DNA of 64,000 bases from Pseudobdellovibrionaceae bacterium (GTDB taxonomy: Bacteria; Bdellovibrionota; FAC87; UBA2466; JACKAF01). The stretch lies in contig JACKAF010000001.1 in NCBI GenBank assembly GCA_020635235.1, positions 178,380 to 242,379 on the forward strand, written 5' to 3'. The translations under genes and the position numbers were made by a program. Numbering within the stretch: the first letter of the stretch is position 1; each line of letters begins with the position of its first letter. Of the stretch, positions 14,794 to 36,873 are shown piece by piece. The notes beneath the pieces were generated by a model. The model was not told where the DNA came from, made no database searches, and saw only the letters and a program-made list of their open reading frames with translations.

Positions 14794-14952
14794 TAACGTT
14801 CCTCTAATGACCGGATAAGTCTCCTGATTATCCCAAGAAACTGTGGGGCAATTATGAAAAGACCTTCAAAGTCCACCCGTTGGACAACTTTTCCCTCATG
14901 CGCAAGACTGAGATAAATAGCCGATATTAGAGGTTTTAATCAAAAACCAGCC

Positions 14953-16455: not shown

Positions 16456-16507
16456 GGGTCCACATTGGGAAAACCCCTAAGAGTGCCGATACAGATTCCG
16501 AAGCCTT

Positions 16508-18790: not shown

Positions 18791-18894
18791 CCAACTCCTT
18801 GATGTTACCGCCCTTAGTCTGTCCAAATGCTTTACATTGATTATGAAGAAACAGATTCACTACAATAGTCAGATAGGGATCCCCTATATCGTAG

Positions 18895-19875: not shown

Positions 19876-19919
19876 AACAAAAATCCACCCCCAGGCGAAT
19901 TCTCTGGTATAGCTAGGCA

Positions 19920-20570
19920 ATGAGGTTGCCTATGCGTTTGCACCGTGCCGTACTTTTTGGCTGCTCGTTTTTGCTGCTAGCCTTGGGAGGATCCAAACCT
20001 ACCGAAACGCCTACAAACGAACATCTCCCCACGTTTGATCGTATTAGCTTAAAGATAGCTGTGAAGCGCGATAAGAACACCTACCGCCTACGTACAGCAG
20101 GCCAGCTAAACTTCCTTGTCACTAGCCCAGTCCAGGGGGAAATCGCCTCCGTTTGTGAGCTCCCGGTTGTGTTGGAGTATTTGGGTGATAAGAACGACTT
20201 TGACAAAAAAGCCTCGAGCAAGATGGATCGCATCGCTAAACAGATGGGGCTCGAGCACTCCTCGGCTCAGGAGTTTTCGAGTGATCTCTTCTTTTTGAAG
20301 GAAGGTAAGTTTGCGGAGGAATTTGCGGGTCGCCTAGACGATCTTCTCACCCGCTATGAACTTACGCCGGTGCTGCTCGAAAAAACTGGGGAAGTGATCT
20401 TCGCTAAAACCGAAAAAGGGTTCGCTTTTAAGTTGCCCCTCGATACAAAGCTTGAATCGCAGATGTCGATTATTATCTCGCTCCGCCCAACAGACGACGC
20501 GGGGACGAGCGCTCTTTGCCAGCAAATCATCGGCAAGGGGTGGAGGCGGGCAAAGCCAACTCCGGGCTAG
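19920..20570 (+). CDS. hypothetical secreted protein
   Basis: Signal peptide MRLPMRLHRAVLFGCSFLLLALGGS. No known motif. Confidence 0.45.
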   Translation: MRLPMRLHRAVLFGCSFLLLALGGSKPTETPTNEHLPTFDRISLKIAVKRDKNTYRLRTAGQLNFLVTSPVQGEIASVCELPVVLEYLGDKNDFDKKASSKMDRIAKQMGLEHSSAQEFSSDLFFLKEGKFAEEFAGRLDDLLTRYELTPVLLEKTGEVIFAKTEKGFAFKLPLDTKLESQMSIIISLRPTDDAGTSALCQQIIGKGWRRAKPTPG

Positions 20571-21496
20571 TTTAGCCGATCGATGCGATCTCGTTTTTTA
20601 GGCCGCTCGATGGATCGGGCGATGCGCTTTTCGTTCACATCGAGGATAAAATCCCAATTGAATTTGACCTTGTTGTTCTTCAAAAGTTCCTGTGGTGGGT
20701 TGGGAAATCTTCCGACATCTTTAAAGGCTTTGATGGCGGCCTCATCCAAATACCCGGATTGGCTACTCGCTACAACCGCCAAATCAACCAGATTGCCCTC
20801 GCTATCTAGTTCCACGTAGACTTTGGTCCTTTTAATTCCATCCTTGAGTTTTCTTTGGCTCATCACCAAAGCGCGTGCACGGCGCTGCACTTCTGGCCGC
20901 CATTTGGGCGCGATTTTTTGTTTGATCCGATCGAAATAGATCCAGTGAGCAAACTCCTTGGTATTAAGAAGTGTGCGGGGCCCGCCGTCTATTCCCTCCA
21001 GGTATTCGTCCCGGGTGCTGCCAAAGCGAATTTCAAAGTCTGGAACACCGTGTTCGGATTTGTTAGGGCCCGCCGTCTGATCTCCCATCGTGTACGCATC
21101 GGGCAATAGCCCCAAACTTTGCAAAGAATCCTCTGAGCCGCCCGAGGCGACGGGGTCGCCTGTGAAAAAGGCCTCGCCTATCGGGGCGCGGGTTTCTTTG
21201 TCGACGGTTTGGCTGCGATCACTCAACTGATCTTCGCTCCCCGCTCTTGAGTCGTCCAGTGCGGCTTCTGTACGCACGAGCTTCTTGCTCTGTTCCGACT
21301 CGGGAACGACTCTCTCGCCGAGAACAGACTCGGCTTCCGAGATCTCAATGAGATCTTCCTCAGAAAGCGGATTTTTAGGCTGCGCTATAAAAATCTGCGG
21401 CGGCTGTATCTGAACCAAAAGAATTACCGCGTGAACAGCTACAGAAAGACAGAGATAGAATGAGCTAGAAAGCCGTTTGAGGGTTTTATCGAGCAT
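20567..21496 (-). CDS. TonB C-terminal-domain protein (membrane-anchored, acidic linker)
   Basis: N-terminal TM anchor. C-terminal roughly 90 aa (KVYVELDSEGNLVDLAVVASSQSGYLDEAAIKAFKDVGRFPNP) fits the TonB_C pattern. No adjacent exbBD. Confidence 0.5.
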   Translation of the reverse strand: MLDKTLKRLSSSFYLCLSVAVHAVILLVQIQPPQIFIAQPKNPLSEEDLIEISEAESVLGERVVPESEQSKKLVRTEAALDDSRAGSEDQLSDRSQTVDKETRAPIGEAFFTGDPVASGGSEDSLQSLGLLPDAYTMGDQTAGPNKSEHGVPDFEIRFGSTRDEYLEGIDGGPRTLLNTKEFAHWIYFDRIKQKIAPKWRPEVQRRARALVMSQRKLKDGIKRTKVYVELDSEGNLVDLAVVASSQSGYLDEAAIKAFKDVGRFPNPPQELLKNNKVKFNWDFILDVNEKRIARSIERPKKRDRIDRLN

Positions 21497-22117
21497 AGCG
21501 TTAGGCCGAGTGCGGGAAACACCGGGCGGTACTCTTCATTCTAGATGAAGCGACAACGCATCTGAAGCAAAACCGGAAAAATCGGACGGCGCTCGGCATT
21601 AGCAGGATAGCCACCTGCGTAATAAAGGGAAGGAAGGAAAGGTGGGTAGGCCGAACACTACGCAACTAATTTTTCTATGAGACTTAGGTGACTGGTATTG
21701 CAGTATTGGATCGCGTATGTGTTCAGCCCTCTTTATTCCCACTGCTTACGGGACAATCTATAGCTATTGTGCGCTTCACCGGGCCCAAGCTCACGTGACA
21801 AGGGTGGCGAGAAAAGGAGGCCACGCTGAGCCCAGTTTGTCGGAAACGTATTCAGTCTGTGTACAGAGCTTGGTCAGCTGGGGAGATAGCTGTATTCATT
21901 AGCTAAATGGATTTTTCCCGGACGAGTGTCGAGCTTCATAGGCCCTCAGGCACGATGGGGGTTGCCATATAATACCAATATAATCAAGTGCTTATTGACT
22001 GCCGGGATGGCCCGGGCCTTGCAATTTGTAGAGGCTGTCTGGCTGCTTTCACCTTTGACCTTCATCCCTGTCCCACTTCATTGAATCTTCCAAGCAAAGC
22101 AAAGTCGAAGGGTTCTA

Positions 22118-23656
22118 ATGTCCGCGCTTTTCAAAAATTTGTTTCTGCTCTCCCTGATAGCACTTGCCGGTTGTACCCGGATTACCGGAGGTAACGGCGA
22201 AGTTTTCGGGGGCGGCGATATTACCAAACAGCTTCTCAATCGCATCCGCAATACGATCCTGTTGGACTCAGTCCGAAACTTAGCGGATGGGCGACAAGTC
22301 AGCTGCAACCTTGAAGCGCTTTGCAGCGAGCACTCGGAGACGCGCGTTTGCCAATCGCGTCCTGTACTGAACCAAACCGAAGTTCAAGCCTGTGAATACA
22401 TCATCCAAAGAAACATCGGAAAACTTCTCTCCGTAGTGCAGTCAACTCAAGTTACGATGGAAAGCTCCGAAAAACCTATTTTTGATAATGGGGCACGCGT
22501 CTCTGCAATTACCTCATTATCCAGTAGCGGCCCGATTCGAGTGGACGTTGCCCGCGTACGGGAACAAAACCTGACGGATTCGGAAATCGCCACACTCTTT
22601 GCCCATGAATTCCTCCACAAAGTTCAGGATCTAATGCCTGGAACGGGATACCTGGATGACGAGGACTCGCTTTCGCCGTTTAGCCAGGGAAGAAAACTCT
22701 TAGATGCCATCGCAACGGTAGTGGGAATCGGCACGCTTAGGAGAATAAGCGCCAAAACCGCTCGCATCGCGGTCGGAACAGACTCGGGAATTCTACGCAC
22801 TCTTCTGGTCTCAGAACAAAAACTCGCTTCTGATCTTTTTCAGCAGCTGGACGCCTTTGGTGAAGACGCCGCACCCGCCATTGCCTCAGGAGATCTGAAC
22901 GGAGACGGGACAGCGGATCTGGTTCTTTCAAGCGCACTCTCCTCACAAGTGATCGCTATCGATGGAAAAACCGGCTCCCAGCTCGCGAGCTGGGTAGGTT
23001 TGGGCGCCGGTTCATCCGTCGCGGTAGGAGACGTGAACGGCGACGGTCTCCCCGATGTCCTCGTGGGTACGCCTCCTGGCCCCGTAAACAAAATTGTAGT
23101 TTACGACAATTTGAACCAGTCGGAATTATATGTCCACCAACCCTATGACACCGGTTTTATCAGTGGGGTTTACGTCGCGGCAGGCGATGTAAATGGAGAT
23201 GGACGCGATGAGATCGTCTCCACCCCTCGGTTGGGCGGCGGCCCTCACCTCAAAGTTTATGATCCAATGGCCGGGATCTACCGATATGATGGATTCGTGT
23301 ACAACCCCGCCTATGTCGGCGGTGTCTCTGTTGCCGCAGGGGATTTGAACGGTAACGGCCGGGATGAGATAATTGTGGGTGCCGCTTTTGGCGCCGGTCC
23401 TCACGTTCGCGCTTTGGACGTCGTCTCCGGAACCATAGCTTATGATGGCTTCCCCTACGATCCCGGTTTCACGGGGGGCGTGCTGGTAGCCAGTGGTGAT
23501 ACGGATGGAGATGGTTTAGCAGAAATCATCACTGTGCCGCATCAAATCGAAAATTTGCCATTGAAAGTGCTTAACCCAAGAAACTCCTCGATAGCGTTTC
23601 AATTTCAGCTATCTCAGGGAGCCACGGGGCCACGCACTTTGGCTTTCATCCGATAA
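22118..23656 (+). CDS. lipoprotein with conserved N-terminal HExxH domain plus FG-GAP repeats (module A, copy 1)
   Basis: Lipobox LIALAGC. HEFLHKVQD motif. Five to six FG-GAP-like repeats (GDLNGDGTADLV, GDVNGDGLPDVLVG, GDVNGDGRDEIVS, GDLNGNGRDEIIVG, GDTDGDGLAEIITV). N-terminal 180 aa paralogous to 25355-26713. Confidence 0.65.
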   Translation: MSALFKNLFLLSLIALAGCTRITGGNGEVFGGGDITKQLLNRIRNTILLDSVRNLADGRQVSCNLEALCSEHSETRVCQSRPVLNQTEVQACEYIIQRNIGKLLSVVQSTQVTMESSEKPIFDNGARVSAITSLSSSGPIRVDVARVREQNLTDSEIATLFAHEFLHKVQDLMPGTGYLDDEDSLSPFSQGRKLLDAIATVVGIGTLRRISAKTARIAVGTDSGILRTLLVSEQKLASDLFQQLDAFGEDAAPAIASGDLNGDGTADLVLSSALSSQVIAIDGKTGSQLASWVGLGAGSSVAVGDVNGDGLPDVLVGTPPGPVNKIVVYDNLNQSELYVHQPYDTGFISGVYVAAGDVNGDGRDEIVSTPRLGGGPHLKVYDPMAGIYRYDGFVYNPAYVGGVSVAAGDLNGNGRDEIIVGAAFGAGPHVRALDVVSGTIAYDGFPYDPGFTGGVLVASGDTDGDGLAEIITVPHQIENLPLKVLNPRNSSIAFQFQLSQGATGPRTLAFIR

Positions 23657-23661
23657 AAACC

Positions 23662-25116
23662 ATGGATCTTGCCTCGCGATTCGCTGACATCGACCATCTG
23701 ATTCAGAAGGGTCGAAGCCAGGAAGCCTTTGAAAAATTATCTCATCTAAATGCCAAAGAATTGGAGCGTTCAGATTTGCCGGCCTACGCCCAACTTGCCT
23801 GGCGGGCCAACGCCCCAGAACTAGGAATAAGAGCTTTAGCAAAATACGTACGGCCGGATCTTAAAACAACGCAAGATCCCTCAACGGCAGAAGTTGCGGA
23901 ATATGCTGCCTGCCTTTCTCGCATTGGGGCCCACGCAGAAGCGGAATTTTTGCTAGCGCCTTGCGACCCGGGGGAGTACCCGAGAGTCTTATTTTATCGG
24001 GCCGCCTTACACATCTCTAAATGGGAATACCACCTAGCCGTCCCAATTCTCAGAAATTTTCTATCCAATTCTCGTATCACACCCTACGAGCGCCTCGTTG
24101 CAAGGATAAATGTCGCCGAAGCGCTTGTCGTTCTGGGTGAAGCCATTCAGGCCAACTATCTCCTCAGAGAGCTGCTGCACACGACTAACCTGTACCAGTA
24201 CCAATACGCAAATGCCAAAGTGCTCGAGCTTTCTGCGCAAAATGCCATCCAAAGAGGTGACATAGAGATCGCGCAAAAAATGCTGAACAGCGCGGGCGAG
24301 ATGTTGGGCGAGGCGAAAAACTTTGAGCCCCTGTTCATTTCTAAATTCAAACTCTACGCGCGGATGCACGCCAACCCTGGAGAAGCAGGGCTTCTTGCGG
24401 AGCTAAAGGAGCTCCTCCTGCGGGCTAAGGAAATTGCCCACTACGAAACGGTCAGGGATCTGGAAGCTTGTATCGCTATTTACAATCAGGACGATAAAAG
24501 GTTTTTGCGCGTTTACGAGGGCACCCCCTATCTGGCATTCAGAAGCAAGATGCTGAGCGCATGGCCCAATGAAGCCCCCGCCCCACGCGGCATACTGCGG
24601 CTGGGTCCCGAAAATGGCGAAGCGAAGCCCCTATCTCTCTTTGGAAAAGAGGAGGAAGGCAAACCCAGCCTGCTCATTCAAAAGGTTTTTTCTGCGCTAC
24701 TAAAGGACCTCTACCGACCGACAAAGGTAGCTACGCTCTACGCAGCCATTTACGAAGGCGAGCACTATCGATACGAAAGCTCCCCGCTACGCGTACGCCA
24801 GGCGGTAAAACGCGCGAGACAATGGCTTTCGGAGAATTGTAACGGACTCAAGATTGAGAGAAGTGAGGACGGTTTTTTTCTCAGTGCCGATGAGCCAATC
24901 GACGTGTACGTGGCGCCCCCTCAGCCCGCCGCGGAGAACCGCTTGGAGGCGTTAAAAGAAAATTTTGGGCAAGAGGCCTTCTCACTCCAAACCGCGGGTA
25001 AGGTGCTCGAACTCTCGCCTCGTTCGGTACTGCGTCTGCTCAGCGAACCGCTCGACTCGGGAGAAATCCAGAAGACGGGTTCGGGTCGCCAAACCAAGTA
25101 CCGGTTCTGCTCGTAG
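23662..25116 (+). CDS. TPR-like helical protein with C-terminal winged-helix motif (module A partner, copy 1)
   Basis: 484 aa. Helical repeat-rich N-region. C-terminus LSPRSVLRLLSEPLDSGEIQKTGSGRQTKYRF carries a GxGRxTxY winged-helix signature. Paralog of 26716-28191. Confidence 0.6.
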   Translation: MDLASRFADIDHLIQKGRSQEAFEKLSHLNAKELERSDLPAYAQLAWRANAPELGIRALAKYVRPDLKTTQDPSTAEVAEYAACLSRIGAHAEAEFLLAPCDPGEYPRVLFYRAALHISKWEYHLAVPILRNFLSNSRITPYERLVARINVAEALVVLGEAIQANYLLRELLHTTNLYQYQYANAKVLELSAQNAIQRGDIEIAQKMLNSAGEMLGEAKNFEPLFISKFKLYARMHANPGEAGLLAELKELLLRAKEIAHYETVRDLEACIAIYNQDDKRFLRVYEGTPYLAFRSKMLSAWPNEAPAPRGILRLGPENGEAKPLSLFGKEEEGKPSLLIQKVFSALLKDLYRPTKVATLYAAIYEGEHYRYESSPLRVRQAVKRARQWLSENCNGLKIERSEDGFFLSADEPIDVYVAPPQPAAENRLEALKENFGQEAFSLQTAGKVLELSPRSVLRLLSEPLDSGEIQKTGSGRQTKYRFCS

Positions 25117-25153
25117 GCCCCCACTGAACAAAGCCCTAACGCCTGCCCAAAAC

Positions 25154-25170
25154 GTATACAACTTGTATAC
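25154..25170. promoter_or_regulatory. perfect 8-1-8 palindrome GTATACAACTTGTATAC, candidate operator
   Basis: Read directly from the sequence. Lies in the intergenic region between the two copies of module A. Confidence 0.35.
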
Positions 25171-25354
25171 TGACCGGGGGGTGTGCAGCAATATTATCCT
25201 TTACTTTCAATAACTTACCAACTGATCTACCGCCCGAATCTGGCACGTCACTTGCTTTATTTAGGTGTGACGCCTTTTAGATAACTTCTTTGCCGGCCAC
25301 TTCTTAGAAACTCTTTCCAACGATTCGCACCCAGGCATTTCCGATAGGTGCTTT

Positions 25355-26713
25355 TTGAGAGACTTCGCTAAAAACTTCCGAATTTTGGTTCTAGGCCTCA
25401 GCCTAAGCGCGCTTCTCACCGGTTGTCTCGATCTAAACAACGGTGAATTCTATGGCGGCAGTGACGGGCTCAAGAAAAAGGCGCAATCTGCTTGGGCACT
25501 AGCGAATAAGCACATCATGGAAATCGAAACAGCGATTAACGCGGGAACGCTAGAACGGGACAGCCTCTGCGTTGCTTCGCTTTGCGATCAGAATCCCGAG
25601 GTCTGTGCGCACCTTCAGGCTGTGAGCACGATCGATTTGGAATCTGCGCGGGACTTTTTAGTGAACCCAAACAACGTGATTGACCTTGTGACGGCAATCA
25701 ACTCAATGGAACTGGTTATTAGTGAGAATCCGCTCTTCCTCAACGGTACGGAAAAAGACGCCATCGTCAACCTTCGCAATCAAACGATTGCCCTAAGCCG
25801 ACCGCGAACCAAAGACATGAGCGTCTCCCGTCTTCAAATGCTCATTGTTCATGAGTTGATTCACATTGTAGAGCAAACTGCGCAGGAGCTTCCGGAAATG
25901 GATAACGTAGGCGCCTGTGTCGCGGTTTTCGGGAATCCGACAGACAGCTTGGGCCCTCAGTACGAGCGCCCCCACTGCGAGTTGCGATTGAGCAAGAGCG
26001 TAGCCGAGCTCAACGAAAATATTGAAGCAACCGTCCGCGTAGTATCCGGTGACGCCGGAGCACGCGCCCGAATCGACGGTGAAGTTGCCGCTATCGAGGA
26101 AGACAGCGATGAGTCTCTCGTCGCCAGCCGGATGATTTCCTTCGCGCGCGACGGGGTGAAACAGATTGAGGCCTCCGTACTAGGTAAAGACGGTAGTTAC
26201 TACGCGTGTGAAGCGGGTGCAAACGGGACCCCCCGCTACCCAGCACAAATTACCCTTCTCCCGCCTAAGTGCGAATCGCGCATATCCATCTTGACCGGTG
26301 AAGTCTCGGGCTTGAGAGCGGGTGAGCTAACAAGCACGGTTTACATTCCCATTTACCCGGAGCTGCGCGAAGGGGAGAGCAAAAGGTTGATGGTGTATGC
26401 AATGGTTGAAACAATTCCCGATAGGAACGACCCGAACGCACCCGCGAACGGGCGGGTGACGGTGCGCGTGCGCACGTCCAACCCGAACATCCCGTCACAG
26501 AATCCCTTAGAAGTTTGGTGCGACCATGGTTTGCTTCAAAGCAATATGGATACACTTGAGTTCCTGGTTACCGAAGAAACTGCCCCGGAAGTTCGGGACC
26601 GTTTGCACTTGAAATTAATGCATGAAGTGTCTGACAGAGGCCCGAAATTCTTCCCAGATACTCATCCGGATTTGACCTCCTGGAGAGGCATTCGGGTCTT
26701 TGAAAGGCAGTAA
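25355..26713 (+). CDS. lipoprotein with conserved N-terminal HExxH domain (module A, copy 2)
   Basis: TTG start with SD AGGTG. Lipobox LLTGC. HELIHIVEQ motif. The N-domain aligns with copy 1 (GC..NGE.FGG.D...C..SLC...VC...HE..H.V). The C-terminal region is different. Confidence 0.6.
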   Translation: MRDFAKNFRILVLGLSLSALLTGCLDLNNGEFYGGSDGLKKKAQSAWALANKHIMEIETAINAGTLERDSLCVASLCDQNPEVCAHLQAVSTIDLESARDFLVNPNNVIDLVTAINSMELVISENPLFLNGTEKDAIVNLRNQTIALSRPRTKDMSVSRLQMLIVHELIHIVEQTAQELPEMDNVGACVAVFGNPTDSLGPQYERPHCELRLSKSVAELNENIEATVRVVSGDAGARARIDGEVAAIEEDSDESLVASRMISFARDGVKQIEASVLGKDGSYYACEAGANGTPRYPAQITLLPPKCESRISILTGEVSGLRAGELTSTVYIPIYPELREGESKRLMVYAMVETIPDRNDPNAPANGRVTVRVRTSNPNIPSQNPLEVWCDHGLLQSNMDTLEFLVTEETAPEVRDRLHLKLMHEVSDRGPKFFPDTHPDLTSWRGIRVFERQ

Positions 26714-26715
26714 AC

Positions 26716-28191
26716 CTAAGCTTTGAAGCGGTAGCGAGTAGAACGCCCACCACCTGTCTTTTCCAAAATTCCGTCCGCGACAAAGTCCGCGAGCAGCCTG
26801 GTTGCCGATCGATCGGACATCGCGAGGCAAAACGCCGCTTCCTTTAGCGAAAAAGGCGTTGCGCTGAGCTTCTCACGAAGTTTTTCCAGTTTTACCCCAC
26901 CCCGCGAGGCCAAGGTTTCCCGGTGCGGCACGGTAATTGTACATTCCGGTTTAGCGACGAGGCGATAGTGGCGCCCCTGGTGGGCGATGCCCAGCGGGAT
27001 CTTGTTCAGCTCAAACCACTCACGAAGACGCACAATTCCCTGATGTATCCTGCCCGGCGAAGTGCTCGGATTGAAAAATTCATCGCCGAAAACCTCCGAA
27101 AAAAGTGCGGCGATCTGACGGGGGCGATAAAAGTCGGAGCACAAGGCCCCTAACAATCGATGAGGAAGTTGACCCACCTTAAGCGGATCTCTGAAATTGG
27201 ACTTCTCCTCAAAAAGGCGGAAGGCCTTTTCTTCTTTTAGATTTCCAACGGCCCAATTGAATTCTTTTGGAATTGCTAGATCCTCACCAAAATCTTTTAA
27301 AAGATACTCACGATACCGCTTGTGGGGAGTTCCAAAGTAAAGTTTTAAGAGCAGTTCTTCATCCTTAGCGATTAACGCTAAAAACCGATCACAGTCCCTA
27401 ACCGTTTCCCAGTGTCCAAATTCTACGGCCCGAGAGCGTACCGAGTGAATGTTCCGAAAGTTTTCGGAACTCGGTGAGAGTTTGGCGCAAACAATCGCTG
27501 ACCACTTATCAATAAACAATCTATCGACGGTATTAGATTCTTTTAGGAGAGTTCGCGCACGATCAAGAAAAGTACCTGCACCCGCTAGGTCCCCAAGAAA
27601 AACCGCGTGCGTCGCGGATATCTCAAGGGCATTAGCCAAAAGTCTTGTGTGCTTGTGGAGGCTCGTGTCGTGCAACAACTCTCGTAAAAGAGCCGTCGCA
27701 GGTACCTCCTGGCGTTCGAAGACCAGCGCCGAAGCAAGGTTCACTTTCGCTACCAGTCTCTGGTACGGATCCTCACCAGGGGCTTCCAAAAATTCCTGAA
27801 GTAGAGGAATGGCTTCCTGGTACGCCCAGGACCCAAAATAGGCAAAAGCCCGGTAGAGAGAGGTTTTCGGAGTAGGTTCAGCGATGGAGTCTAAGATCCC
27901 CAACGCCTCCGGGGTTGCCCCCAAGCGCATCAAACACGCGGCGTATTCGAGCTTCTCCTCAACACTCGCTTCTTTTTTCTTGCGCTCCGAAGGGCGGACG
28001 ATCGCGTGCAAAGCCAAAAGGCCAGCTTCGGGTAGACCTGCGCGCCAGGAGAGTTGCGCGAGCTTCGCCCGAAAATCTCGGGGTGTTTTTCGAGCCGCTA
28101 GATCCTTTAAAAGGGCCTGGGCCTCACCCCCCTGCCCCGCCTGGATTAGCCGGTGGATTTGCTCCAATTGGGTGCTGTAGGGAGAGCTCAT
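26716..28191 (-). CDS. TPR-like helical protein with C-terminal winged-helix motif (module A partner, copy 2)
   Basis: 491 aa, paralogous along its length to 23662-25116. Ends ...ILEKTGGGRSTRYRFKA. Convergent with, and 2 bp from, the copy-2 lipoprotein. Confidence 0.6.
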   Translation of the reverse strand: MSSPYSTQLEQIHRLIQAGQGGEAQALLKDLAARKTPRDFRAKLAQLSWRAGLPEAGLLALHAIVRPSERKKKEASVEEKLEYAACLMRLGATPEALGILDSIAEPTPKTSLYRAFAYFGSWAYQEAIPLLQEFLEAPGEDPYQRLVAKVNLASALVFERQEVPATALLRELLHDTSLHKHTRLLANALEISATHAVFLGDLAGAGTFLDRARTLLKESNTVDRLFIDKWSAIVCAKLSPSSENFRNIHSVRSRAVEFGHWETVRDCDRFLALIAKDEELLLKLYFGTPHKRYREYLLKDFGEDLAIPKEFNWAVGNLKEEKAFRLFEEKSNFRDPLKVGQLPHRLLGALCSDFYRPRQIAALFSEVFGDEFFNPSTSPGRIHQGIVRLREWFELNKIPLGIAHQGRHYRLVAKPECTITVPHRETLASRGGVKLEKLREKLSATPFSLKEAAFCLAMSDRSATRLLADFVADGILEKTGGGRSTRYRFKA

Positions 28192-28363
28192 AGGAGGGTT
28201 TATTGTACCATGGGGGTGACCGCAGGCCGGCCCGACGCGAGCATAACTTATTAATATTATTCATATATATTACTTGCTATTCTCGCCAAAATGCTAAATC
28301 GGAACGCACGTCCCATTTCCGTAAACTAAGAGAATACGAACCCCTTTTACTTAAGAGGCCAAC

Positions 28364-29302
28364 ATGAAAAACATACTTAGTGCATTCACCCTCATAGTAA
28401 TCCTTCAGGCGACTGTCGCCTGCCAAAAAGCACCGATAAACCTTGTCCCGCAAGAGGCGGCTATCAAGTCCGCTAGGAACGGGAAAATTTACCCAGTCAA
28501 CTGCCTCATCGAAATGGGTGCGGACGACATGGAGCAATGCGCGCTCTCGGAAAGCCAAGTTCGATCGGGCGGAAGCAGCGCTAGAGGGCTCGCGAACTCG
28601 CAATTCAACTACACTCAACCTGGATACGGGTACACGCAGCTCTTTAATCCGTACTATTTCTTGAACGTGGGTAGCTACAACGAGTTTGATCTTTGTACCT
28701 ACCTTTTTGGGATCGATCGCTGTTTCGAAGCCTTTGGTTATTTCCCGCCGCTGCCTTTGAACTCCGGGCCTAGCGACTGCGAACTCGCGTTTCTCTTTGG
28801 GGGCGCTCCTGTATTCGATCCCCGGTGCTTTATCGGCGCGGTTCCGGAATTTCCTGGAGTTGTCATCGAGCCAACAGAGCCGCTTTCAGGCCACGAGGCA
28901 AACCCGCACATCCTCATTGAGGTGCGCATGCGCCGCGGTACTTCGGCGAAGTTCCTGCGCGTAATGCGCAACCGCGACATTGTCACCGGCTGCTCGGGTG
29001 ATCAGGAATGCCCGAACCGCACCGTGCGCAAGATCACGACCGAGCGCGAGAACAATATTCGCGAAGCGCTTACCAAGCTCAAAAAAGAAGATCTCGAAGT
29101 ACTTGTGAACGACCGCACTTGCCAGGGCAACCCGGCTCGGCCCGCAACGAACTTCGACCGCTTCACTGCAAACGATCGAGAATTCGTACTGTTCGAACAG
29201 ATCCGAACGCAATGCTTGAGCCGAGTCCGACAAGATCGTACCAACCCTGCGGTACGCTTGTACGACATTCTTCGCCAGCTCAGAAACGAGGTTCAATTAT
29301 AA
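28364..29302 (+). CDS. Cys-rich secreted hypothetical protein
   Basis: Signal or lipoprotein peptide MKNILSAFTLIVILQATVAC. Multiple Cys residues. No known domain. Confidence 0.45.
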   Translation: MKNILSAFTLIVILQATVACQKAPINLVPQEAAIKSARNGKIYPVNCLIEMGADDMEQCALSESQVRSGGSSARGLANSQFNYTQPGYGYTQLFNPYYFLNVGSYNEFDLCTYLFGIDRCFEAFGYFPPLPLNSGPSDCELAFLFGGAPVFDPRCFIGAVPEFPGVVIEPTEPLSGHEANPHILIEVRMRRGTSAKFLRVMRNRDIVTGCSGDQECPNRTVRKITTERENNIREALTKLKKEDLEVLVNDRTCQGNPARPATNFDRFTANDREFVLFEQIRTQCLSRVRQDRTNPAVRLYDILRQLRNEVQL

Positions 29303-29422: not shown

Positions 29423-32400
29423 TTACTTGCTGATACGTACGTACGCGTTGTTACAGGAGTTTGCGTCAAATAACGAACTCCCCTTCGTCATGTCGGTCAT
29501 GATGCGGGGCATGAGTTCTACAACGATATCAGAATGGATCTGACCTTCCTGGATGACCCCCTTTACAACGTCTTCCAGATCCCCCGGCTGCAGGTACTTG
29601 AAAAAGTCACCGAGCGCGATGACCCCTTTCTGCACGCGGATCAGGTAATCTGATGCCCCACCTTTTTCTGTTTTTTCCTGAATGAGTTTAAACAGGTAGT
29701 CCCCAAAGGCGTGATCCCCGGTACCGAGTTCGGATTTGAAGCTTTTTACCCCCTCATAGAGGACATCCGCGAGTACTTTTCTATCTTCTGTCGTTGGCAG
29801 CTGATCGTCGGTTGCCATTGCACCGAAATCAAACAAGTAGATCTTGTTTCCGTCTATTTTGAGCTGCGCACCGTGGCGATCGTGATCGAATTTCTCGCCT
29901 CTCAGTATCCGTGAAATCTCAAGCGCCACATAAGCGCGCGCGATGTCGCGCTTGCGTGCTTTTTGCTTGGCGGTTCTTTCGGGGAGATCGTTAAAATGCA
30001 CGCCTTTAGCCTGCTCCATCACGCGGTAACCCTCTCCGCTCTCCAGTGTGCGGGCCACGTGTATCTCGAAGGGTTTGCCATCGCCCACTTTAATCGTGGC
30101 GCCGTGATAAAGGCGCTCAGCGTCCTCGGCTTGCTTTTTCCCGATTTGCCAATCGGTTTCAATATCAGCCATCCGTTCGGCTTGCTCGATCATGGAAACA
30201 AGGACCTTAAAGGCGGAGTTCTTTTCGGCCTGCTTTTGCGCCATCTTCTTCATGACTTCAAAACCAGTCTTGGCGCGCTTCTTCGCATGCGGACGAAGGA
30301 GAGAAATCACGCGGCTTTCTAGTACGACGCCGCCATTGGGCCGCACGGTCTCTAGTTCTACTTCGTAGGTGACATAGTAGGACGCAGCGCCAAGTATCCG
30401 TTTGACGCGTTTAATGCGCTTTTTGAGAGAAGCGGGAATGACATCTCCATGCAGCTTAAAGAGATCCCAACGCGTTAGCACGTCCGCTTCGCTCTTGAGG
30501 CGGCCCATCCCATCACGGATTTCATGTGGGGTGTGCGGACTACTGTGCAGGACTTGTCCCAACTTTGTTTCGGCGGGTCCCATGCGTTCTAGAATAAGCG
30601 CCAGACGTTCTCCAATGGTGGTCTTAAAGCGAGACTGCTCCGTATTTTGCGCCGCCGCCATAAGCGCTGCGATCACAAGGCTGCGTTGGTACTTGGGGAT
30701 CTCCTCGATGTAGAGTCGCACCAGATCGTGCGCCTCTTTTGAGTACTTTTCACCCGTTGGGAAAACCTTGTTTAGGATTCTCTCGGCAGCCTTTTCAAAT
30801 TCACCGTCACTTCGCCTGTCTCCGGGAAGAATAAGTTCATCAATGATCCCGACCCGAAGCTCCATGTCGGACGCCCAGAAGTTTTGGTGAATCTCGCGGG
30901 CCAGACGCTGGTAACCCTCATCGGTTGAAATGGCTTGACCATCGGTGAGGAGCTGTTGCTCAAGACTTAGGGCGTGGCCAAAATCCGAAAGAGAACGCGC
31001 GGTCATCGGGCGCGTGAGAAAATCGACTAGTTCGTCGCGAAATTGATGGTTGGCTCGCACCAAGCGCAGGGAGAGGTTAAGCCCCATCATTTTTAGGTCG
31101 GTCTCGACACCTTGCCCCCTTCGCGCTTCTCCTAGCTTCAAACTGAGATCTTCTTGCGATTCCACTTCGTTGGCGAGGTGGTTGAATAGTTCGTGCCGGT
31201 CTTGGGCATAGAGGTGTGTCCCGGCGCGATCAGCTTCTGCGAGGATAGTTTCGGTGTAGATAGAATCGCCTGCATCCTTACCGAATCGCTCACGCGCGGA
31301 TTGCGCCCAGAGTTTAAGCATGCGGGTTCGCAGTTTTGGGTCTTGTACTCGTGGGCCTCTAAAGATGCGCTCAATGGCGCCTTGGCGAAGCGCTGGCGAG
31401 CTGTATTCGGAAAGCCGATCCAGAATGTCTTTGATAAGTTTGTAGCGCAGCACCCCGTCCTCCGGGAAAAGCCTCGCCTTGTCAAAGAGGGTAAACTCGT
31501 TGAGTAGTGGCCGTGCGCTTTTTGGCCAGTCTTTGCGGTTTTTTACGTAGTTCGAAAACCTTTTTTCTAAGCTTGTGGTTTTCTCTCGCCATTCGCTATG
31601 CAGATATGGAAGCACGCGTTTTGGATCCAGGTTTTCTTTGGGGTGGTTGACCTGAAAGACTTCTGCTTCCATCGCCGCCAGCCCGGCGAGGAAGTTTCCG
31701 GGACGGGATCCCAGACTTTCCAGTAGCTTGTAGAGCTCCTCGGCCGTTTGTGGTTGCTCGTAACCCAACTGCCTCCTAACGGTCGTGAGATAGAGATTGG
31801 CTGTATCTTGCCGGACATCGGGCATACCGCTAGGGGCGAGCGGCGGCACGAGGGCTGAGGTAAATCCAAGCACATGGACTTTGTCCTGACGCGAGGGAAA
31901 TAGGCCGTGAGGGTCTTCGAGCGCAAAGCTTACTAGCGGGTGGGCAAGCGGCAGACCGTCAAAACCGTGCTCGCCATAAGAGGCCCCCGCTCTGCCCGCG
32001 ATATCGGGGAAGGCGCCTTTCATATAAAACTCGCGGACGATGGGTTTCCATTTGTCCGGATCTTCTCGGATGAGTTCGGAGAGCTTTTTTATGAGTTGCC
32101 CGGCGGGCGCACCCGAGCGTGCCGGGATATCAGACAGGATCGGCATATTGACCCGCATAAAAAGATCAAAATCTTTATCTATGGATTCGAGTCCGATGAG
32201 GCCGTCTGATTTTCCCATTGAGGAAGCGCTCGCAGTAGCTAAAATGTCGTGGGCTTCCGTATCGCCGTGAATCGCTCGCTGAAAGAGTTCCGGTACATAC
32301 TCTCCGAAGAGTTCGCGGCGTAACTCTTCAGCTTTTCCCGAGCCCGGCTTTCGCAGCCCGACCGCTTCACCGTCGGCGCCAATAACCAAACGATCCATGG

Positions 32401-33919
32401 TGCGATCGTCCCGACGAGGGCCTTCGTTCACCGATTTGCAGCGTCCCAGCATACAGAGCGCTTTGTCGTTAAGATCCATCAGCTGATAGACGCGCGGCTC
32501 TTTCACTCCGAGATGATAGAGCGCCAAGCTTAGGTGTTTGGAATCGTCCCCCACGCCCTGCGACCAAACGATGGCCCGTTCCCATTCCACGGTTTCGCCC
32601 TTTCGGGGAAAACGAAAGGTTGGGATGTAAAGATCCTGTAGAAAGGCGGCATCAATCTTTCCGTCTTTGATGGCCTTATTCAGGCCGATGGCGGCTTCCA
32701 CTGCGGCTTTTCTGTAAGAGTCTGCGGTGCGGGTATCCCCTTCGTCCGAGGCTTCGGTGGCTTTTCTCACTGCCTCCACAAAATCATAAGCATAGACGAA
32801 GATTGGCTCTGCATCTCCCAGAGCGGTGTCGGATTTGTGGTAGCGCTGCGCGAGAGCGGTGTAGAGTCTTTGGCGTGGGCCCGTGAGTCCAAGTTTTTCA
32901 TCTGGGTCACGTGTTGGCAGATGCAAGATGAGATTTGCGGCCTTGCTGAGTTCCACCCAACGCGGATCATCGTCCATTTCGATGCTTTCCAGGGAGGGGA
33001 TCGTTCCAATCGCTGCGCTAAGGTCCTCGGTGCGCGCATCGTGACCGGAAAGAATGTGGGGCATCTGCGCCTGGACAAATTTCAGTTTCTCTACAGCGTC
33101 CAGAGTGGAGAACTTGGCCTTTTCCATTTCCTTATCTAAAAAAGATACGTGCTTGCTACTGCCGGCCGCGGCAATCTTGGGATCCACAGGAGTGCTGGCA
33201 ATCTTTTCCCCGGCGTCCGTTTCCTCAAGCTTTCCTTTTTTGAAACGTAAATGCCCTAACCCTTTCTCCACCATCGAGCGGCGCGTGGGGAGGTCCCACG
33301 CAAATATTGAGCGATCTCCAAATCCGAACTTCGATCGGGGTTCATTTTCAAGAGCGTCCTGTACGCTTAGCGCGGCCGTAGCGTCGAAATGGCGTTCATG
33401 GAGGACTTCCAAAGCGCGCGTGACCCCGAGAGCGTCATCTGCCATACCGGTTCGGGCTTGTGGCTCGGAATCGATCTGGTTCGAAATGACTTCGGTCGCG
33501 AGCAAGTAGGCGAGCTCATCTTGTGTCTTTACCGTCCGCACGGTTTGCGTGGTGAAGCCAATGAAGTTGTGTCCGTCGGTAACGAAGCTTTTGTGCCCGA
33601 GACGATCGCTATCCATCAGGAAAAAATGAACGGGGTGCTTTTTTAGGTCGTGATTGGGAAAGAGCCGCTTAAAGAGCTCTTGCATTTCGATGTCGAAGTC
33701 GCGCGCCACGGGGGATTGGAGATCCACCACACGGTGATTTTCCTGAAGGCGTTGAGACATCTCGCCACGCGCAAGCGCTTTGTCTTCATCGTCCGTAGGA
33801 TCTGCGTGCAGGGCAAAACTGAAGGCAAAAAACAGAAAAAATAGAATTTTAGCTAGGGACTTGATCCCGGCCTCCTCGTGCGTAATCCGTCGCTTGTTGT
33901 TATGCAAGGAGACGGCCAA
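29423..33919 (-). CDS. giant signal-anchored protein: degenerate M48-like peptidase segment plus C-terminal ABC1/UbiB-type atypical kinase domain
   Basis: 1498 aa. Hydrophobic N-terminal segment ILFFLFFAFSFALHA. N-terminal region FFLMDSDRLGHKSFVTDGHNFIGFTTQ...DELAYLLATEVIS resembles the M48 core, but HExxH is replaced by TEVIS. C-terminal LERMGPAETKLGQVLHSSPHTPHEIRDGM ... FDHDRHGAQLKIDG ... LFDFGAM match ABC1 kinase motifs. Confidence 0.65.
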   Translation of the reverse strand: MAVSLHNNKRRITHEEAGIKSLAKILFFLFFAFSFALHADPTDDEDKALARGEMSQRLQENHRVVDLQSPVARDFDIEMQELFKRLFPNHDLKKHPVHFFLMDSDRLGHKSFVTDGHNFIGFTTQTVRTVKTQDELAYLLATEVISNQIDSEPQARTGMADDALGVTRALEVLHERHFDATAALSVQDALENEPRSKFGFGDRSIFAWDLPTRRSMVEKGLGHLRFKKGKLEETDAGEKIASTPVDPKIAAAGSSKHVSFLDKEMEKAKFSTLDAVEKLKFVQAQMPHILSGHDARTEDLSAAIGTIPSLESIEMDDDPRWVELSKAANLILHLPTRDPDEKLGLTGPRQRLYTALAQRYHKSDTALGDAEPIFVYAYDFVEAVRKATEASDEGDTRTADSYRKAAVEAAIGLNKAIKDGKIDAAFLQDLYIPTFRFPRKGETVEWERAIVWSQGVGDDSKHLSLALYHLGVKEPRVYQLMDLNDKALCMLGRCKSVNEGPRRDDRTMDRLVIGADGEAVGLRKPGSGKAEELRRELFGEYVPELFQRAIHGDTEAHDILATASASSMGKSDGLIGLESIDKDFDLFMRVNMPILSDIPARSGAPAGQLIKKLSELIREDPDKWKPIVREFYMKGAFPDIAGRAGASYGEHGFDGLPLAHPLVSFALEDPHGLFPSRQDKVHVLGFTSALVPPLAPSGMPDVRQDTANLYLTTVRRQLGYEQPQTAEELYKLLESLGSRPGNFLAGLAAMEAEVFQVNHPKENLDPKRVLPYLHSEWREKTTSLEKRFSNYVKNRKDWPKSARPLLNEFTLFDKARLFPEDGVLRYKLIKDILDRLSEYSSPALRQGAIERIFRGPRVQDPKLRTRMLKLWAQSARERFGKDAGDSIYTETILAEADRAGTHLYAQDRHELFNHLANEVESQEDLSLKLGEARRGQGVETDLKMMGLNLSLRLVRANHQFRDELVDFLTRPMTARSLSDFGHALSLEQQLLTDGQAISTDEGYQRLAREIHQNFWASDMELRVGIIDELILPGDRRSDGEFEKAAERILNKVFPTGEKYSKEAHDLVRLYIEEIPKYQRSLVIAALMAAAQNTEQSRFKTTIGERLALILERMGPAETKLGQVLHSSPHTPHEIRDGMGRLKSEADVLTRWDLFKLHGDVIPASLKKRIKRVKRILGAASYYVTYEVELETVRPNGGVVLESRVISLLRPHAKKRAKTGFEVMKKMAQKQAEKNSAFKVLVSMIEQAERMADIETDWQIGKKQAEDAERLYHGATIKVGDGKPFEIHVARTLESGEGYRVMEQAKGVHFNDLPERTAKQKARKRDIARAYVALEISRILRGEKFDHDRHGAQLKIDGNKIYLFDFGAMATDDQLPTTEDRKVLADVLYEGVKSFKSELGTGDHAFGDYLFKLIQEKTEKGGASDYLIRVQKGVIALGDFFKYLQPGDLEDVVKGVIQEGQIHSDIVVELMPRIMTDMTKGSSLFDANSCNNAYVRISK

Positions 33920-34105
33920 TTCTTGTCCGTCATTTCAACTGGTTAGCAGCCTGTAAACTAGCTGAGTTCGTAGTAGATCTAAGCACCAGTCTGGGTCTTG
34001 ATATAAGGTGAAAGCGAGGAGCTGCATTCTAGAAGTGTGCTCCCGAGGAGAGCGAAAGATTCGACCCCGAAGGGAACGAATCACAAAACCGTCAGCCAGT
34101 GAAAC

Positions 34106-34231
34106 TGGCGGAGAGAGAGAGATTCGACCCCGAAGGGAACGAATCACAAAACCGTCAGCCAGTGAAACTGGCGGAGAGAGAGAGATTCGACCCCGAAGGG
34201 AACGAATCACAAAACCGTCAGCCAGTGAAAC
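34106..34231. repeat. two perfect tandem 63-bp repeats, each starting with a copy of the 22-nt 3' end (with CCA) of the adjacent tRNA-Ser; a degenerate third copy lies at 34043-34105
   Basis: Unit is TGGCGGAGAGAGAGAGATTCGA plus CCCCGAAGGGAACGAATCACAAAACCGTCAGCCAGTGAAAC. Copies start at 34106 and 34169. The tRNA itself starts at 34232. The degenerate copy matches 17 of 22 nt. Confidence 0.85.
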
Positions 34232-34319
34232 TGGCGGAGAGAGAGAGATTCGAACTCTCGATAGGTTTCCCTATACACGCGTTCCAGGCGTGCGCCTTCA
34301 ACCACTCGGCCATCTCTCC
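34232..34319 (-). tRNA. tRNA-Ser (anticodon GGA), type II with long variable arm
   Basis: Reverse complement GGAGAGATGGCCGAGTGGTTGAAGGCGCACGCCTGGAACGCGTGTATAGGGAAACCTATCGAGAGTTCGAATCTCTCTCTCTCCGCCA folds as a cloverleaf. 7-bp acceptor stem, anticodon loop CTGGAAC, T-loop TTCGAAT, encoded CCA. Confidence 0.85.
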
Positions 34320-34590: not shown

Positions 34591-36030
34591 ATGGCTGGGG
34601 GTCACAAACTACTATTCTTTTTTCTTTTGCTTGCGCGCGCCGTAATGGCCGACACTCTTTCACCACCCGCCACCCCCCTTGATTGCCGTGCGGCGCTCCA
34701 AGAAATCGGCCTTACTCCCGATGAAGCCTCCGCGCTCATGAACGAGGCGTCCCCGTCCTCTCTTCGCCACATCATCGAGAACCACTACCGAACTCCGTCG
34801 AGCCTGGAGGACTCTTTGCGTAAGCACGTCGCGGGTGACCGAGCCCTTTCCGATTCCGCGGTAGCCGCCTTGGAGAAAGCCGGCTATCGGGTAATCCGCA
34901 AACTCGGGCAAGGCGCTTTTGGCACCGCACACCTTATTGAAAAAAACGGAAAGCGCTTTGTCGTAAAAGAGGGGCACTCACCAGAGTCCCTGATCCGAGA
35001 GGCTGAGGCCATCTCCGCATTGCCCCAAATTCCACCGCAGTTTTTCTACTTCCCGTCAGTGTGGTACCCAACCGCCACTGAATTTCCGTACCAGCGCGGC
35101 GGCAATAAAGATAACTTGCTCATCGCGGCCCTTTTCGAAAAGTGCCCCGGCTGTCACGAGCCAGCTCCCGCGCTTAGCCAACGTATTAAAGAGCAGTTCT
35201 TGGATCCTCAAGAAAATCCGGTACGGTACCAGCACTTCGTACGGAGCCTACTGGATAGCGTCGCTGTTCTCCATACTTCAGGCCGTATCATCCACCGCGA
35301 TATTAAACCCGAAAACATTCTGGTGGACGACTCGGGAAACGTGGGGGTCATCGACTACGGAATGGCCATCGACGGCGCCGCCTTCGGACCAACCACCCTC
35401 TCGGGCACGCTGAAATACGTCTCGCCAAGTGCGCTAAGGGGAAACCCTCCCTCTCCCCTTGATGATATCCACGCGCTACGGATCACTTTGCGCAGCGTTC
35501 GCCAATCGACCGATCCTAATGCTGCGCCACTCATCAATGTTTCGACTGATTATGGCGTCTTGCCGCTTCACAGCCACGCGGCTGAACTCCCAGGTAAACC
35601 GGACAGAGTTGCAATGCTTGAATGGAGCCGAGTGTTTGACTCCGTTACTGAGTGGCAAGCAGCGTTGGACAAGCGGGCGATTCCGGATCGTGAGTTTGAC
35701 CCTTGGTACGGCCAACGGTTGACGACTCAGGATGATTCAACAATCGCACTCGAAATGCTCAGTTCCCTCTATTCTATCGAACGCTTCCGATCCAACGGTG
35801 GGTACCAGATTGAAAATGAGCGGTTAAAAGAAATAATCGTTGAAGTTATTCGCCTCGATGGCGCTTTAGGGAACCAGCCCGCGCTCCTTCTGGAACGGGG
35901 CTTCCTGACTAGAGACGCACACTTTGAGGAATTCTACGATCAAGTAGAAACACTCTACCAACACGGAGAAATACCCCACTACCTACTACGCATGGCGCGG
36001 GAATCGCGCACCCGCCGCGCAGGCCCCTAG
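34591..36030 (+). CDS. eukaryotic-like Ser/Thr protein kinase with N-terminal signal peptide
   Basis: Signal-like MAGGHKLLFFFLLLARAVMA. Gly-rich loop LGQGAFGTAHL with VVKEG lysine. Catalytic loop HRDIKPENILVD. DYG(MA) variant of DFG. Confidence 0.75.
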   Translation: MAGGHKLLFFFLLLARAVMADTLSPPATPLDCRAALQEIGLTPDEASALMNEASPSSLRHIIENHYRTPSSLEDSLRKHVAGDRALSDSAVAALEKAGYRVIRKLGQGAFGTAHLIEKNGKRFVVKEGHSPESLIREAEAISALPQIPPQFFYFPSVWYPTATEFPYQRGGNKDNLLIAALFEKCPGCHEPAPALSQRIKEQFLDPQENPVRYQHFVRSLLDSVAVLHTSGRIIHRDIKPENILVDDSGNVGVIDYGMAIDGAAFGPTTLSGTLKYVSPSALRGNPPSPLDDIHALRITLRSVRQSTDPNAAPLINVSTDYGVLPLHSHAAELPGKPDRVAMLEWSRVFDSVTEWQAALDKRAIPDREFDPWYGQRLTTQDDSTIALEMLSSLYSIERFRSNGGYQIENERLKEIIVEVIRLDGALGNQPALLLERGFLTRDAHFEEFYDQVETLYQHGEIPHYLLRMARESRTRRAGP

Positions 36031-36051: not shown

Positions 36052-36873
36052 TCAGCTAGTTAGATTCAACCCTTCGCTCAGCACTTGTATCCCGTGCGCA
36101 AAAAGCGGAATACCCGCCTCAAGCGCCTCCTGCTCGAGCTGCCGCCGACGGGCACGAAGACTTTGGCGAGACGCCTTTTCTACGCCGTTGGCCTTGGCCC
36201 ACTCCTCCAGCACTGCCAGATCGTGGGCCGTACCGAGAAGTTTACCGAGCGCCTCGACGGCCTCAAGCCTCCTGGCGGCAAACTCCATATCCCGAAGCAA
36301 CTTCAAATGAAAGCCGTGGTACTTCACGCGCTTCCGCCACACGTGAAATTTCAGTGCAGAGGGCTTCGCCTCCGCCTCCCGCCCACAGCGCTCCGCGCGC
36401 CGATACGTCTTCAAGAAACCAGGAGCAAACCCAGCGGCCTCTAAAAACTTCCACTTACCGCAACGCGCCTGCCCAAGCAGCAATCTCTGCCGGACCTCTT
36501 TGAGTACCTTTTCAATCTCCAATTCCGTCGCTTGCTCGGCCCTTAACTTCTCCAACCACAAATTTGCCTCTGGCTGAGACTCGCCCCATTTTGCCGCGGT
36601 TAGCTGCAAAATTTCGCCGTCCCGATACCGCGACAACAATCTACCGGTATCGCGGTACCACCTGTTCTCCTTGCGATAGGTTTTTACAGGCAAGCTGGCG
36701 CGAAAAAGTCGCAAACTCGCGCGAATCCTTTTCAAACTTCTCCGAATACTGTGCACTCGTTCAGCGAGTGACTTCCCTTCGGTGGTGTTTACTAGCGACT
36801 CGGTGAGCTCCTCACGGATCACGCGAGCTAGTTCCTGATTGGCGGGCGCATAGAGGTCGATCTTAAAGGCCAT
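36052..36873 (-). CDS. CHAD domain-containing protein
   Basis: Conserved His-containing helices VHSIRRSLKRIRASLRLFR, FHVWRKRVKYHGFHLKLL and LGTAHDLAVL match the CHAD pattern. Confidence 0.65.
   Translation of the reverse strand: MAFKIDLYAPANQELARVIREELTESLVNTTEGKSLAERVHSIRRSLKRIRASLRLFRASLPVKTYRKENRWYRDTGRLLSRYRDGEILQLTAAKWGESQPEANLWLEKLRAEQATELEIEKVLKEVRQRLLLGQARCGKWKFLEAAGFAPGFLKTYRRAERCGREAEAKPSALKFHVWRKRVKYHGFHLKLLRDMEFAARRLEAVEALGKLLGTAHDLAVLEEWAKANGVEKASRQSLRARRRQLEQEALEAGIPLFAHGIQVLSEGLNLTS

Follow-up and report, generated by a model that had tools for sequence, protein, structure and literature searches.

A 1498-residue protein of a Bdellovibrio-like bacterium that joins a predicted export signal, an M48 domain without zinc ligands and a long helical solenoid to a divergent UbiB/ABC1-like kinase fold

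The window analysed here, a stretch of 64,000 nucleotides (nt) from a Bdellovibrio-like bacterium, contains a single open reading frame (ORF) of 1498 amino acids (aa) whose two ends recall two different enzymes, which raises the question of what this protein is, where it resides and whether it still catalyses a reaction. A previous inspection of the DNA, in the following called the sequence-only reading, had described it as a signal-anchored protein combining a degenerate M48-like peptidase segment with an ABC1/UbiB-type kinase domain. Our analysis supports this architecture and the underlying family assignment with high confidence. What is new is that the protein represents a variant within the UbiB/ABC1 superfamily; it is at the same time a degenerate representative of a large family without a name, in which an M48 domain, a solenoid and a UbiB-like domain are fused. 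The overall reading that we favour, with a probability of about 0.5, is that of a Sec-exported enzyme or effector with the UbiB-like module as its working part. The ORF and its parts, in the order signal, zinc-less M48 domain, long alpha-solenoid and UbiB/ABC1-like kinase fold, are located as follows.

29423..33919, minus strand: whole ORF, uninterrupted, 1498 aa counted from TTG 33919, with TTG 33907 and ATC 33865 as other in-frame starts
33803..33865, minus strand: putative signal peptide or signal anchor, aa 19-39, IKSLAKILFFLFFAFSFALHA followed by DPTDD, with GGAGG 5 nt upstream of ATC 33865
33134..33742, minus strand: BepA-like M48 domain without zinc ligands (pseudo-peptidase), aa 60-262, supported by family profile and AlphaFold2 (AF2) fold
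30743..33133, minus strand: alpha-helical solenoid, aa 263-1059, supported by AF2 helix content and Foldseek
29426..30742, minus strand: UbiB/ABC1-like atypical kinase-fold domain, aa 1060-1498, supported by Pfam, fold and profile alignment

An identical protein exists in NCBI (H6617_00880; MCB9253221.1 and MCB0417594.1), where it is named 'hypothetical protein' and belongs to a metagenome-assembled genome (MAG) labelled Bdellovibrionaceae, Bdellovibrionales or Pseudobdellovibrionaceae bacterium. The motifs on which the sequence-only reading was built were each located in the ORF: TEVIS at aa 142-146, GPAETKLGQ with KLGQ at 1119-1122, FDHDRHGAQLK from 1344 and LFDFG from 1362.

The ABC1 assignment of the C-terminal domain is upheld by a family model, by fold and by profile alignment. 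Pfam ABC1 (PF03109; gathering cut-off 22.9 bits) matched aa 1205-1373 with 31.6 bits in the whole protein and 34.6 bits in the C-terminal piece. An AF2 model of aa 780-1498, which was built on 45 family sequences, was confident (predicted local distance difference test score, pLDDT, 87.6; predicted template modelling score, pTM, 0.86), and its best Foldseek match was COQ8A (5i35, E 1.2e-6), followed by MSMEG_1954. The best structural match of the C-terminal domain is hence the ADCK3-type fold, consisting of a kinase core and the KxGQ helical extension. In addition, hhalign aligned the family kinase domain with UbiB of E. coli MG1655 over 253 columns with a probability of 80% and an E-value of 1.4e-5, and the following stretches correspond in this profile alignment.

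UbiB LGPVWIKFGQ corresponds to window MGPAETKLGQ
UbiB LASASIAQVH corresponds to window LGAASYYVTY
UbiB VVIKVIRP corresponds to window RVISLLRP
UbiB FFHADMHPGN corresponds to window KFDHDRHGAQ
UbiB IDCG corresponds to window FDFG

One fragment is named 'AarF/UbiB family protein' by NCBI. Neither the protein nor the kinase piece nor a kinase-only profile matched any sequence of the PDB.

The Pfam match, together with a weak match to TIGR01982 (aa 1079-1388), could also be expected of a housekeeping UbiB of quinone biosynthesis. However, the TIGR01982 score was 45.4 bits compared to a cut-off of 487.55, PRK04750 reached 13.3 bits compared to 667, and the family kinase profile found neither E. coli UbiB at E<=1e-3 nor, by sequence, COQ8A. 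The ORF moreover has no C-terminal membrane helix, is longer by about 1000 residues, bears a predicted export signal, and there are no ubi genes near it. A housekeeping role is excluded by score, architecture and context, and we regard its probability as close to nil.

Relatives were collected by an exhaustive HMMER search over 1.84 billion representatives, clustered at 50% identity. This revealed 628 clusters at E<=1e-3, of which 396 remained when the threshold was E<=1e-30. A word-indexed search had returned no match for the full protein, four for the kinase piece and one for a 34-sequence profile; the orphan status suggested by these numbers was an artefact of that search, whose limit of 8000 candidates can hide a populous family when the proteins are long and moderately conserved. 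Most members measure 1450-2000 aa and some up to 3069 aa, and the common plan is a BepA-type M48 domain followed by an alpha-solenoid of about 800 aa and a divergent UbiB/ABC1-type domain. The giant size, which the sequence-only reading had considered unusual for an ABC1 kinase, is in fact the normal layout of this family. Similarity among the members is concentrated in the C-terminal 650-700 aa or so, the kinase domains being divergent (28-40% identity), and an M48-like N-terminus was detectable in 93 of 118 long representatives. Three members of 2677-3069 aa (P0117, P0136 and P0144) have no M48 domain and carry instead an N-terminal SidE_PDE domain (E 1e-34 to 1e-38) and ankyrin repeats, while sharing the C-terminal solenoid and UbiB-like module of the window protein at E-values of about 1e-57 to 1e-60. 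In P0073, M48 and EF-hands precede the same C-terminal module. SidE-family and ankyrin domains are hallmarks of proteins that Legionella-type intracellular bacteria deliver into eukaryotic cells. No paralogue of the ORF was found in the 64-kb window, plasmid and phage collections gave no matches to the protein, and the PADLOC anti-phage defence models returned 0 families at E<=0.01. Literature searches on UbiB, ABC1 or AarF, in one case together with M48, in effector, secretion, Legionella or Bdellovibrio settings returned no description of an M48-solenoid-UbiB fusion.

The N-terminal domain is more degenerate. Pfam M48 did not match the ORF, even when four separate pieces were searched at E<=10, and the assignment comes from its relatives: a family M48 profile from which the window protein was left out matched aa 60-262 with 75.8 bits (E 2.3e-19), the six closest full-length homologues all have a Peptidase_M48 Pfam match at residues of about 60-150, and one relative is named 'M48 family metalloprotease' by NCBI. 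The N-terminal profile of the family also matched solved M48 enzymes (3c37 at 8.7e-15, BepA at about 1e-10), and these matches extend over the HExxH block as well as the ExxAD...HP..R block. In an AF2 model of aa 19-779 (pLDDT 82.4), BepA (6sar/6ait) and 3c37 were recovered with probability 1.0; the accompanying TM-scores are low because the solenoid makes up most of the model. Profile searches thus left both the ABC1 and the M48 assignment standing, the latter including the replacement of the zinc ligands that had been proposed from the motif below.

33482..33496, minus strand: degenerate zinc motif TEVIS in place of HExxH, aa 142-146, from the alignment columns

Of the 95 M48 domains scored in the family, 90 have H-E-x-x-H in the HExxH columns, where the window protein has T-E-V-I-S; the motif is lost in three of the 95, namely in the window protein, P0006 and P0057. 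As 90 of the 95 keep it, the window copy is a rare pseudo-protease variant. The Glu that serves as third ligand is present in 91 of the 95 and replaced by Asp162 in the window protein, where the 'AD' of ExxAD has become 'GV', the NAF of the relatives has become GHK and their DVHP..NR loop is deleted. Judged from the aligned columns, the window protein has lost every zinc-binding element of an M48 peptidase. An orthologue with 75% identity, in the following L001, was found in the Bdellovibrionota MAG BC2.86 (JAWKNY010000001.1, 10000-14453). It has TEVIA at the zinc motif, which indicates that the loss of the zinc site is shared and old.

A separate group of 25 long relatives of about 1800 aa (alignment A5), which had no M48 profile match, shows an N-terminal Cys/His region (VGxCxEH ... 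DxHxFLAINRD ... FDxWN) without Pfam match, followed in the consensus by GFxxPxIAIHxxFL...ELxFAxAxxL, which resembles a further M48 domain whose HExxH is degenerate. Should this stretch be M48, zinc-site loss would not be restricted to the lineage of the window protein.

Between the two domains, the AF2 secondary structure of aa 263-1059 is nearly all helix, and Foldseek returned HEAT/ARM-type solenoids beside the BepA matches. These middle 800 aa, searched as separate pieces at E<=10, match no Pfam family. From about aa 780 onwards the solenoid is kept in nearly all family members, and most relatives align from aa 780-860 or so.

Where the protein resides depends on its N-terminus. A hydropathy scan found one hydrophobic segment in the entire protein, aa 19-39; the N-terminal hydrophobic signal of the sequence-only reading is real, and it is common to the closest relatives. 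K20 and K24 are followed by ILFFLFFAFSFAL and a candidate cleavage site (SFA/L or LHA/D). The best 11-residue stretch has a mean hydropathy of 2.72, and the segment may be either a cleaved signal or an uncleaved anchor. The nearest full-length relatives (P0003, P0004, P0005, P0010 and P0019) begin with classical signal peptides, and an N-terminal hydrophobic signal is present in 17 of the 118 long family members, most of them the nearest relatives of the window protein. From hydropathy, charge distribution and conservation, a Sec signal peptide or an N-in anchor is likely, which would place the bulk of the protein outside the cytoplasm.

The three in-frame starts listed above all lie ahead of the hydrophobic stretch. 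Both genes have a GGAGG that is followed after 5 nt by ATC in the window (33863-33886) and by ATT in L001 (10005-10019), before the signal codons. L001 continues with a hydrophobic core of other sequence and ADPTDEE, so that ADPTD[DE]E after the signal is common to both. Hydrophobicity and ADPTD[DE]E are kept while the nucleotides diverge, which indicates that the signal-like stretch is coding. Further upstream in L001 there are an indel and a stop (TAG), and thus no canonical upstream start codon. This pattern suggests either a non-ATG/GTG/TTG initiation codon or a loss of the signal in L001, and the true start in the window probably lies near aa 19.

Alternatively, translation might begin at Met54 (ATG 33760), in which case the supposed signal peptide would be an untranslated leader and the protein cytoplasmic. 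An ATP-using domain fits the cytoplasm best, about 100 of the 118 long relatives have no N-terminal hydrophobic stretch, and in L001 a TAG lies just upstream and a frameshift just downstream of the signal-like stretch, while 'GEMSQRLQENHRVVD' including the Met is kept. The coding-type conservation described above, the conserved GGAGG ahead of it, the intact frame in the window and the classical signal peptides of the five nearest relatives speak against this start, and the L001 gene, with four single-base frameshifts, is either a pseudogene or part of an error-prone assembly. Overall, we consider a cytoplasmic location improbable.

The four single-base indels that break the L001 gene are situated near 10100, 10638, 11337 and 13179, and its pieces are annotated apart by NCBI, as 'hypothetical protein' and 'AarF/UbiB family protein'. 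Further ORF pairs that overlap in L001 likewise point to possible indel errors. We compared the window gene with L001 over five ungapped segments, using the proportions of nonsynonymous (pN) and synonymous differences (pS) instead of dN/dS, as synonymous sites were saturated (pS 0.77-0.95 in every segment). The kinase-like segment was the most constrained, with a pN of 0.04 and 94% amino acid identity; pN was 0.11 and 0.23 in the two parts of the pseudo-M48 domain and 0.15-0.16 in the solenoid. As pN lies far below pS in all five segments, every part of the protein has been under purifying selection, the dead protease included. Since protein-level conservation also runs across each break, L001 would be a pseudogene of very recent origin, a gene that is split, or the product of a faulty assembly.

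Whether the UbiB-like module is an enzyme was judged from its active-site residues, counted over about 153 family kinase-like domains. Three motifs are central to this comparison.

30554..30565, minus strand: KxGQ motif, K1119-L-G-Q1122
29864..29890, minus strand: catalytic loop FDHDRHGAQ, aa 1344-1352
29822..29830, minus strand: DFG motif, D1364-F-G1366

In the KxGQ motif, which aligns to the KFGQ of UbiB, Lys is found in 150 and Gln in 151 domains. D1347 and H1349 of the catalytic loop, the Asp of DFG and E1254, the Glu of the ExD motif, are invariant across the family. The metal-binding Asn position, Q1352 in the window protein, is occupied by Gln in 114 and Asn in 39 domains and by nothing else. 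LGAASYY aligns to the Ala-rich nucleotide-binding loop of UbiB (LASASIA), with family columns S/A, A/G and S. Two residues are specific to the family, K1142 of an RLK motif in the KxGQ extension (147 of about 153) and Q1263 (148 of about 153). UbiB/COQ8 proteins are ATPases in which the Gln of KxGQ positions the attacking water, and the mutation D507N of the DFG-type Asp abolished ATP binding and activity (bioRxiv 10.1101/149823). The strict conservation of the catalytic aspartates argues for an enzyme whose nucleotide site has been rewired.

Several observations weigh against an exported and active protein. The beta3 Lys of UbiB (K153) aligns to Ser1206, in a column that contains S/A/T/L/R and Lys in only a few members (e.g. 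P0011). The position of the alpha-C Glu, for which hhalign has a gap in the helix, is Gly1260 (G/S/A in the family) by its spacing from the ExD Glu. With both residues apparently missing, the domain could be a nucleotide-free pseudo-enzyme. The export signal was judged from hydrophobicity and conservation alone, and the rarity of such signals among the long family members and the L001 stretch, which is out of frame with the remainder of its gene, count here as well. Furthermore, six loci of relatives contained no secretion-system gene, no partner gene and no conserved neighbour.

Taken further, these points would describe a wholly non-catalytic protein, an exported scaffold or binding protein in which both the M48 and the UbiB-like domain are pseudo-enzymes. 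The lost zinc ligands and the apparent lack of the Lys and Glu of the kinase fold would agree with this, as would the solenoid, which makes up more than half of the protein, and the fact that the periplasm contains no ATP. Such side-chain conservation would not be expected of a pure scaffold, however: in domains of 28-40% identity, KxGQ and the ExD Glu do not vary, nor do the Asp of the catalytic loop, the Asp of DFG and the His of DxH, the metal-binding position is always Gln or Asn, and the kinase segment is the most constrained of all. We therefore regard a purely structural protein as unlikely, and judge the chances that the UbiB-like module is active, from its residue pattern, to be about even.

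According to the favoured reading of an exported enzyme or effector, the Sec pathway would move the protein out of the cytoplasm, and the dead peptidase and the solenoid would serve as its binding or scaffolding part. The UbiB-like domain would bind and hydrolyse a nucleotide, or transfer phosphate from it, using D1347, Q1352, D1364, KxGQ and E1254. The family-invariant K1142 may stand in for the missing beta3 Lys. The protein would then act in another cell, namely prey, or in a compartment supplied with nucleotides, in an effector-like role. The lack of periplasmic ATP and the relatives with SidE_PDE, ankyrin or EF-hand domains make such a place the likeliest site of action, and among the candidates the prey cell is the most plausible, given the predatory Bdellovibrio-like lineage of the producer and the effector-type relatives. 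Action in prey is nevertheless a tentative proposal, to which we assign a rather low probability. The secreted or envelope effector or scaffold that the sequence-only reading had envisaged may likewise find indirect support in the SidE_PDE, ankyrin and EF-hand domains of these relatives.

It may further be speculated, with still less confidence, that the solenoid and the UbiB-like module form an unrecognised, widespread effector cassette, an ATP-using enzyme with a rewired site, in which an invariant Lys of the KxGQ extension takes over from the beta3 Lys and alpha-C Glu pair. Bacteria would fuse this cassette to different 'warheads' (M48; SidE_PDE and ankyrin; EF-hand) and deliver it into other cells. 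The window protein would in that case be the first UbiB-family enzyme to work outside the cytoplasm of its producer, exported into prey with a dead protease as targeting module.

The gene begins close to a tRNA gene, which the sequence-only reading had interpreted as an integration hotspot.

34232..34319, minus strand: tRNA-Ser(GGA), 313 nt upstream of the ORF and on the same strand
34047..34253, minus strand: 63-nt tandem repeat, 3.3 copies with 98% identity

The repeat unit combines the 22-nt 3' end of tRNA-Ser(GGA), with its encoded CCA, and 41 nt of downstream sequence; three copies of the 22-mer are exact and a fourth is degenerate. The adjacency to tRNA-Ser was confirmed, but the hotspot itself was not, since only this local repeat was found, with no integrase, no distal repeat and no shift in composition. 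The gene could still be cargo of a mobile element at tRNA-Ser(GGA), which would be compatible with any of the other readings. Consistent with this, the repeated tRNA 3' end lies between the tRNA and the gene, L001 resides in a wholly different neighbourhood without a tRNA that has nothing in common with the window beyond the gene, and the family lacks conserved neighbours. On the other hand, a scan of flanking ORFs detected no integrase, transposase or other mobility gene, the 22-mer does not recur elsewhere in the 64-kb window, the G+C content is flat (0.53-0.55 over the gene compared to 0.50-0.55 in the rest of the window), and the absence of plasmid and phage matches noted above points in the same direction. 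A head-to-tail array of 63 nt fits replication slippage equally well. The repeat may have arisen by slippage or by repeated integration and excision, and we consider the cargo explanation improbable.

Divergent from the tRNA and the large ORF, window positions 34591-36030 (plus strand) encode a 479-aa protein with a protein kinase domain (Pfam Pkinase 3e-19, annotated 'phosphotransferase'). Beside it lie genes for a CHAD-domain protein (36052-36873), an MscS channel and an NrsF/ECF-sigma pair, none of which showed a link to the large ORF. In the stretches 11389-29302 and 44056-47064 of the window, many ORFs encode orphans or large proteins predicted to be secreted or exposed at the surface. 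They include two NHL-repeat proteins (1134 and 1002 aa), an FG-GAP/VCBS protein, a dockerin-domain protein and a CHASE2-cyclase-PilZ protein; another four ORFs, of 312-500 aa, have no Pfam match.

The interest of this locus lies more in the family, with its rewired site and its modular, effector-like relatives, than in the single gene. Few members of the kinase superfamily are as poorly understood as the UbiB/ABC1 proteins. At least 600 sequence clusters form a separate UbiB-type branch, in which the domain is joined to a protease and a huge solenoid. The branch is distinct in that its catalytic aspartates are invariant although the Lys-Glu pair of canonical members appears to have been replaced, and some members carry effector-type domains or export signals. 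If the module is active, the range of activity and location of UbiB-type proteins would be wider, and the family also offers natural variants for asking which residues the UbiB fold needs. For predatory bacteria, the ORF is nominated as a candidate exported enzyme. Unusual in the window copy is that a predicted export signal and a fossil protease occur together. The copy is also a clean natural example of one enzyme domain that has turned into a pseudo-enzyme while its fusion partner remains under strong constraint.

Among known systems, the order of peptidase and helical repeats and the predicted periplasmic address resemble BepA (YfgC). In BepA, however, the helical part is a tetratricopeptide repeat domain of about 200 aa, whereas that of the window protein comprises about 800 aa and ends in a kinase-like domain; compared to M48 enzymes in general, the window protein lacks HExxH, the third-ligand Glu, NAF and DVHP..NR. 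A likeness to Legionella-type effectors is seen in the three relatives with SidE_PDE and ankyrin domains, and effectors typically are large, have shuffled domains and lack conserved neighbours. The window protein itself has no SidE_PDE, ankyrin or EF-hand domain, its predicted signal is of the Sec and not the type IV kind, and its source is Bdellovibrio-like. From the UbiB/ABC1/ADCK proteins, such as E. coli UbiB, human COQ8A/ADCK3, M. tuberculosis Rv3197 and M. smegmatis MSMEG_1954, the sequence is very remote, with an identity of 13% in the structural alignment. To our knowledge, a lipid-stimulated ATPase is the sole firmly measured activity of these proteins, and every member studied functions in quinone or lipid metabolism at the cytoplasmic or matrix face of a membrane. 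The window family differs from them in the absence of the beta3 Lys and, apparently, of the alpha-C Glu, in its invariant K1142 and Q1263, and in a Gln in place of the Asn of the catalytic loop in 75% of its members. The window domain has no membrane helix and follows, as part of a fusion, other domains that together span about 1050 aa. The window copy bears a predicted export signal, in contrast to known UbiB proteins, whose site of action is the cytoplasmic or matrix side of a membrane.

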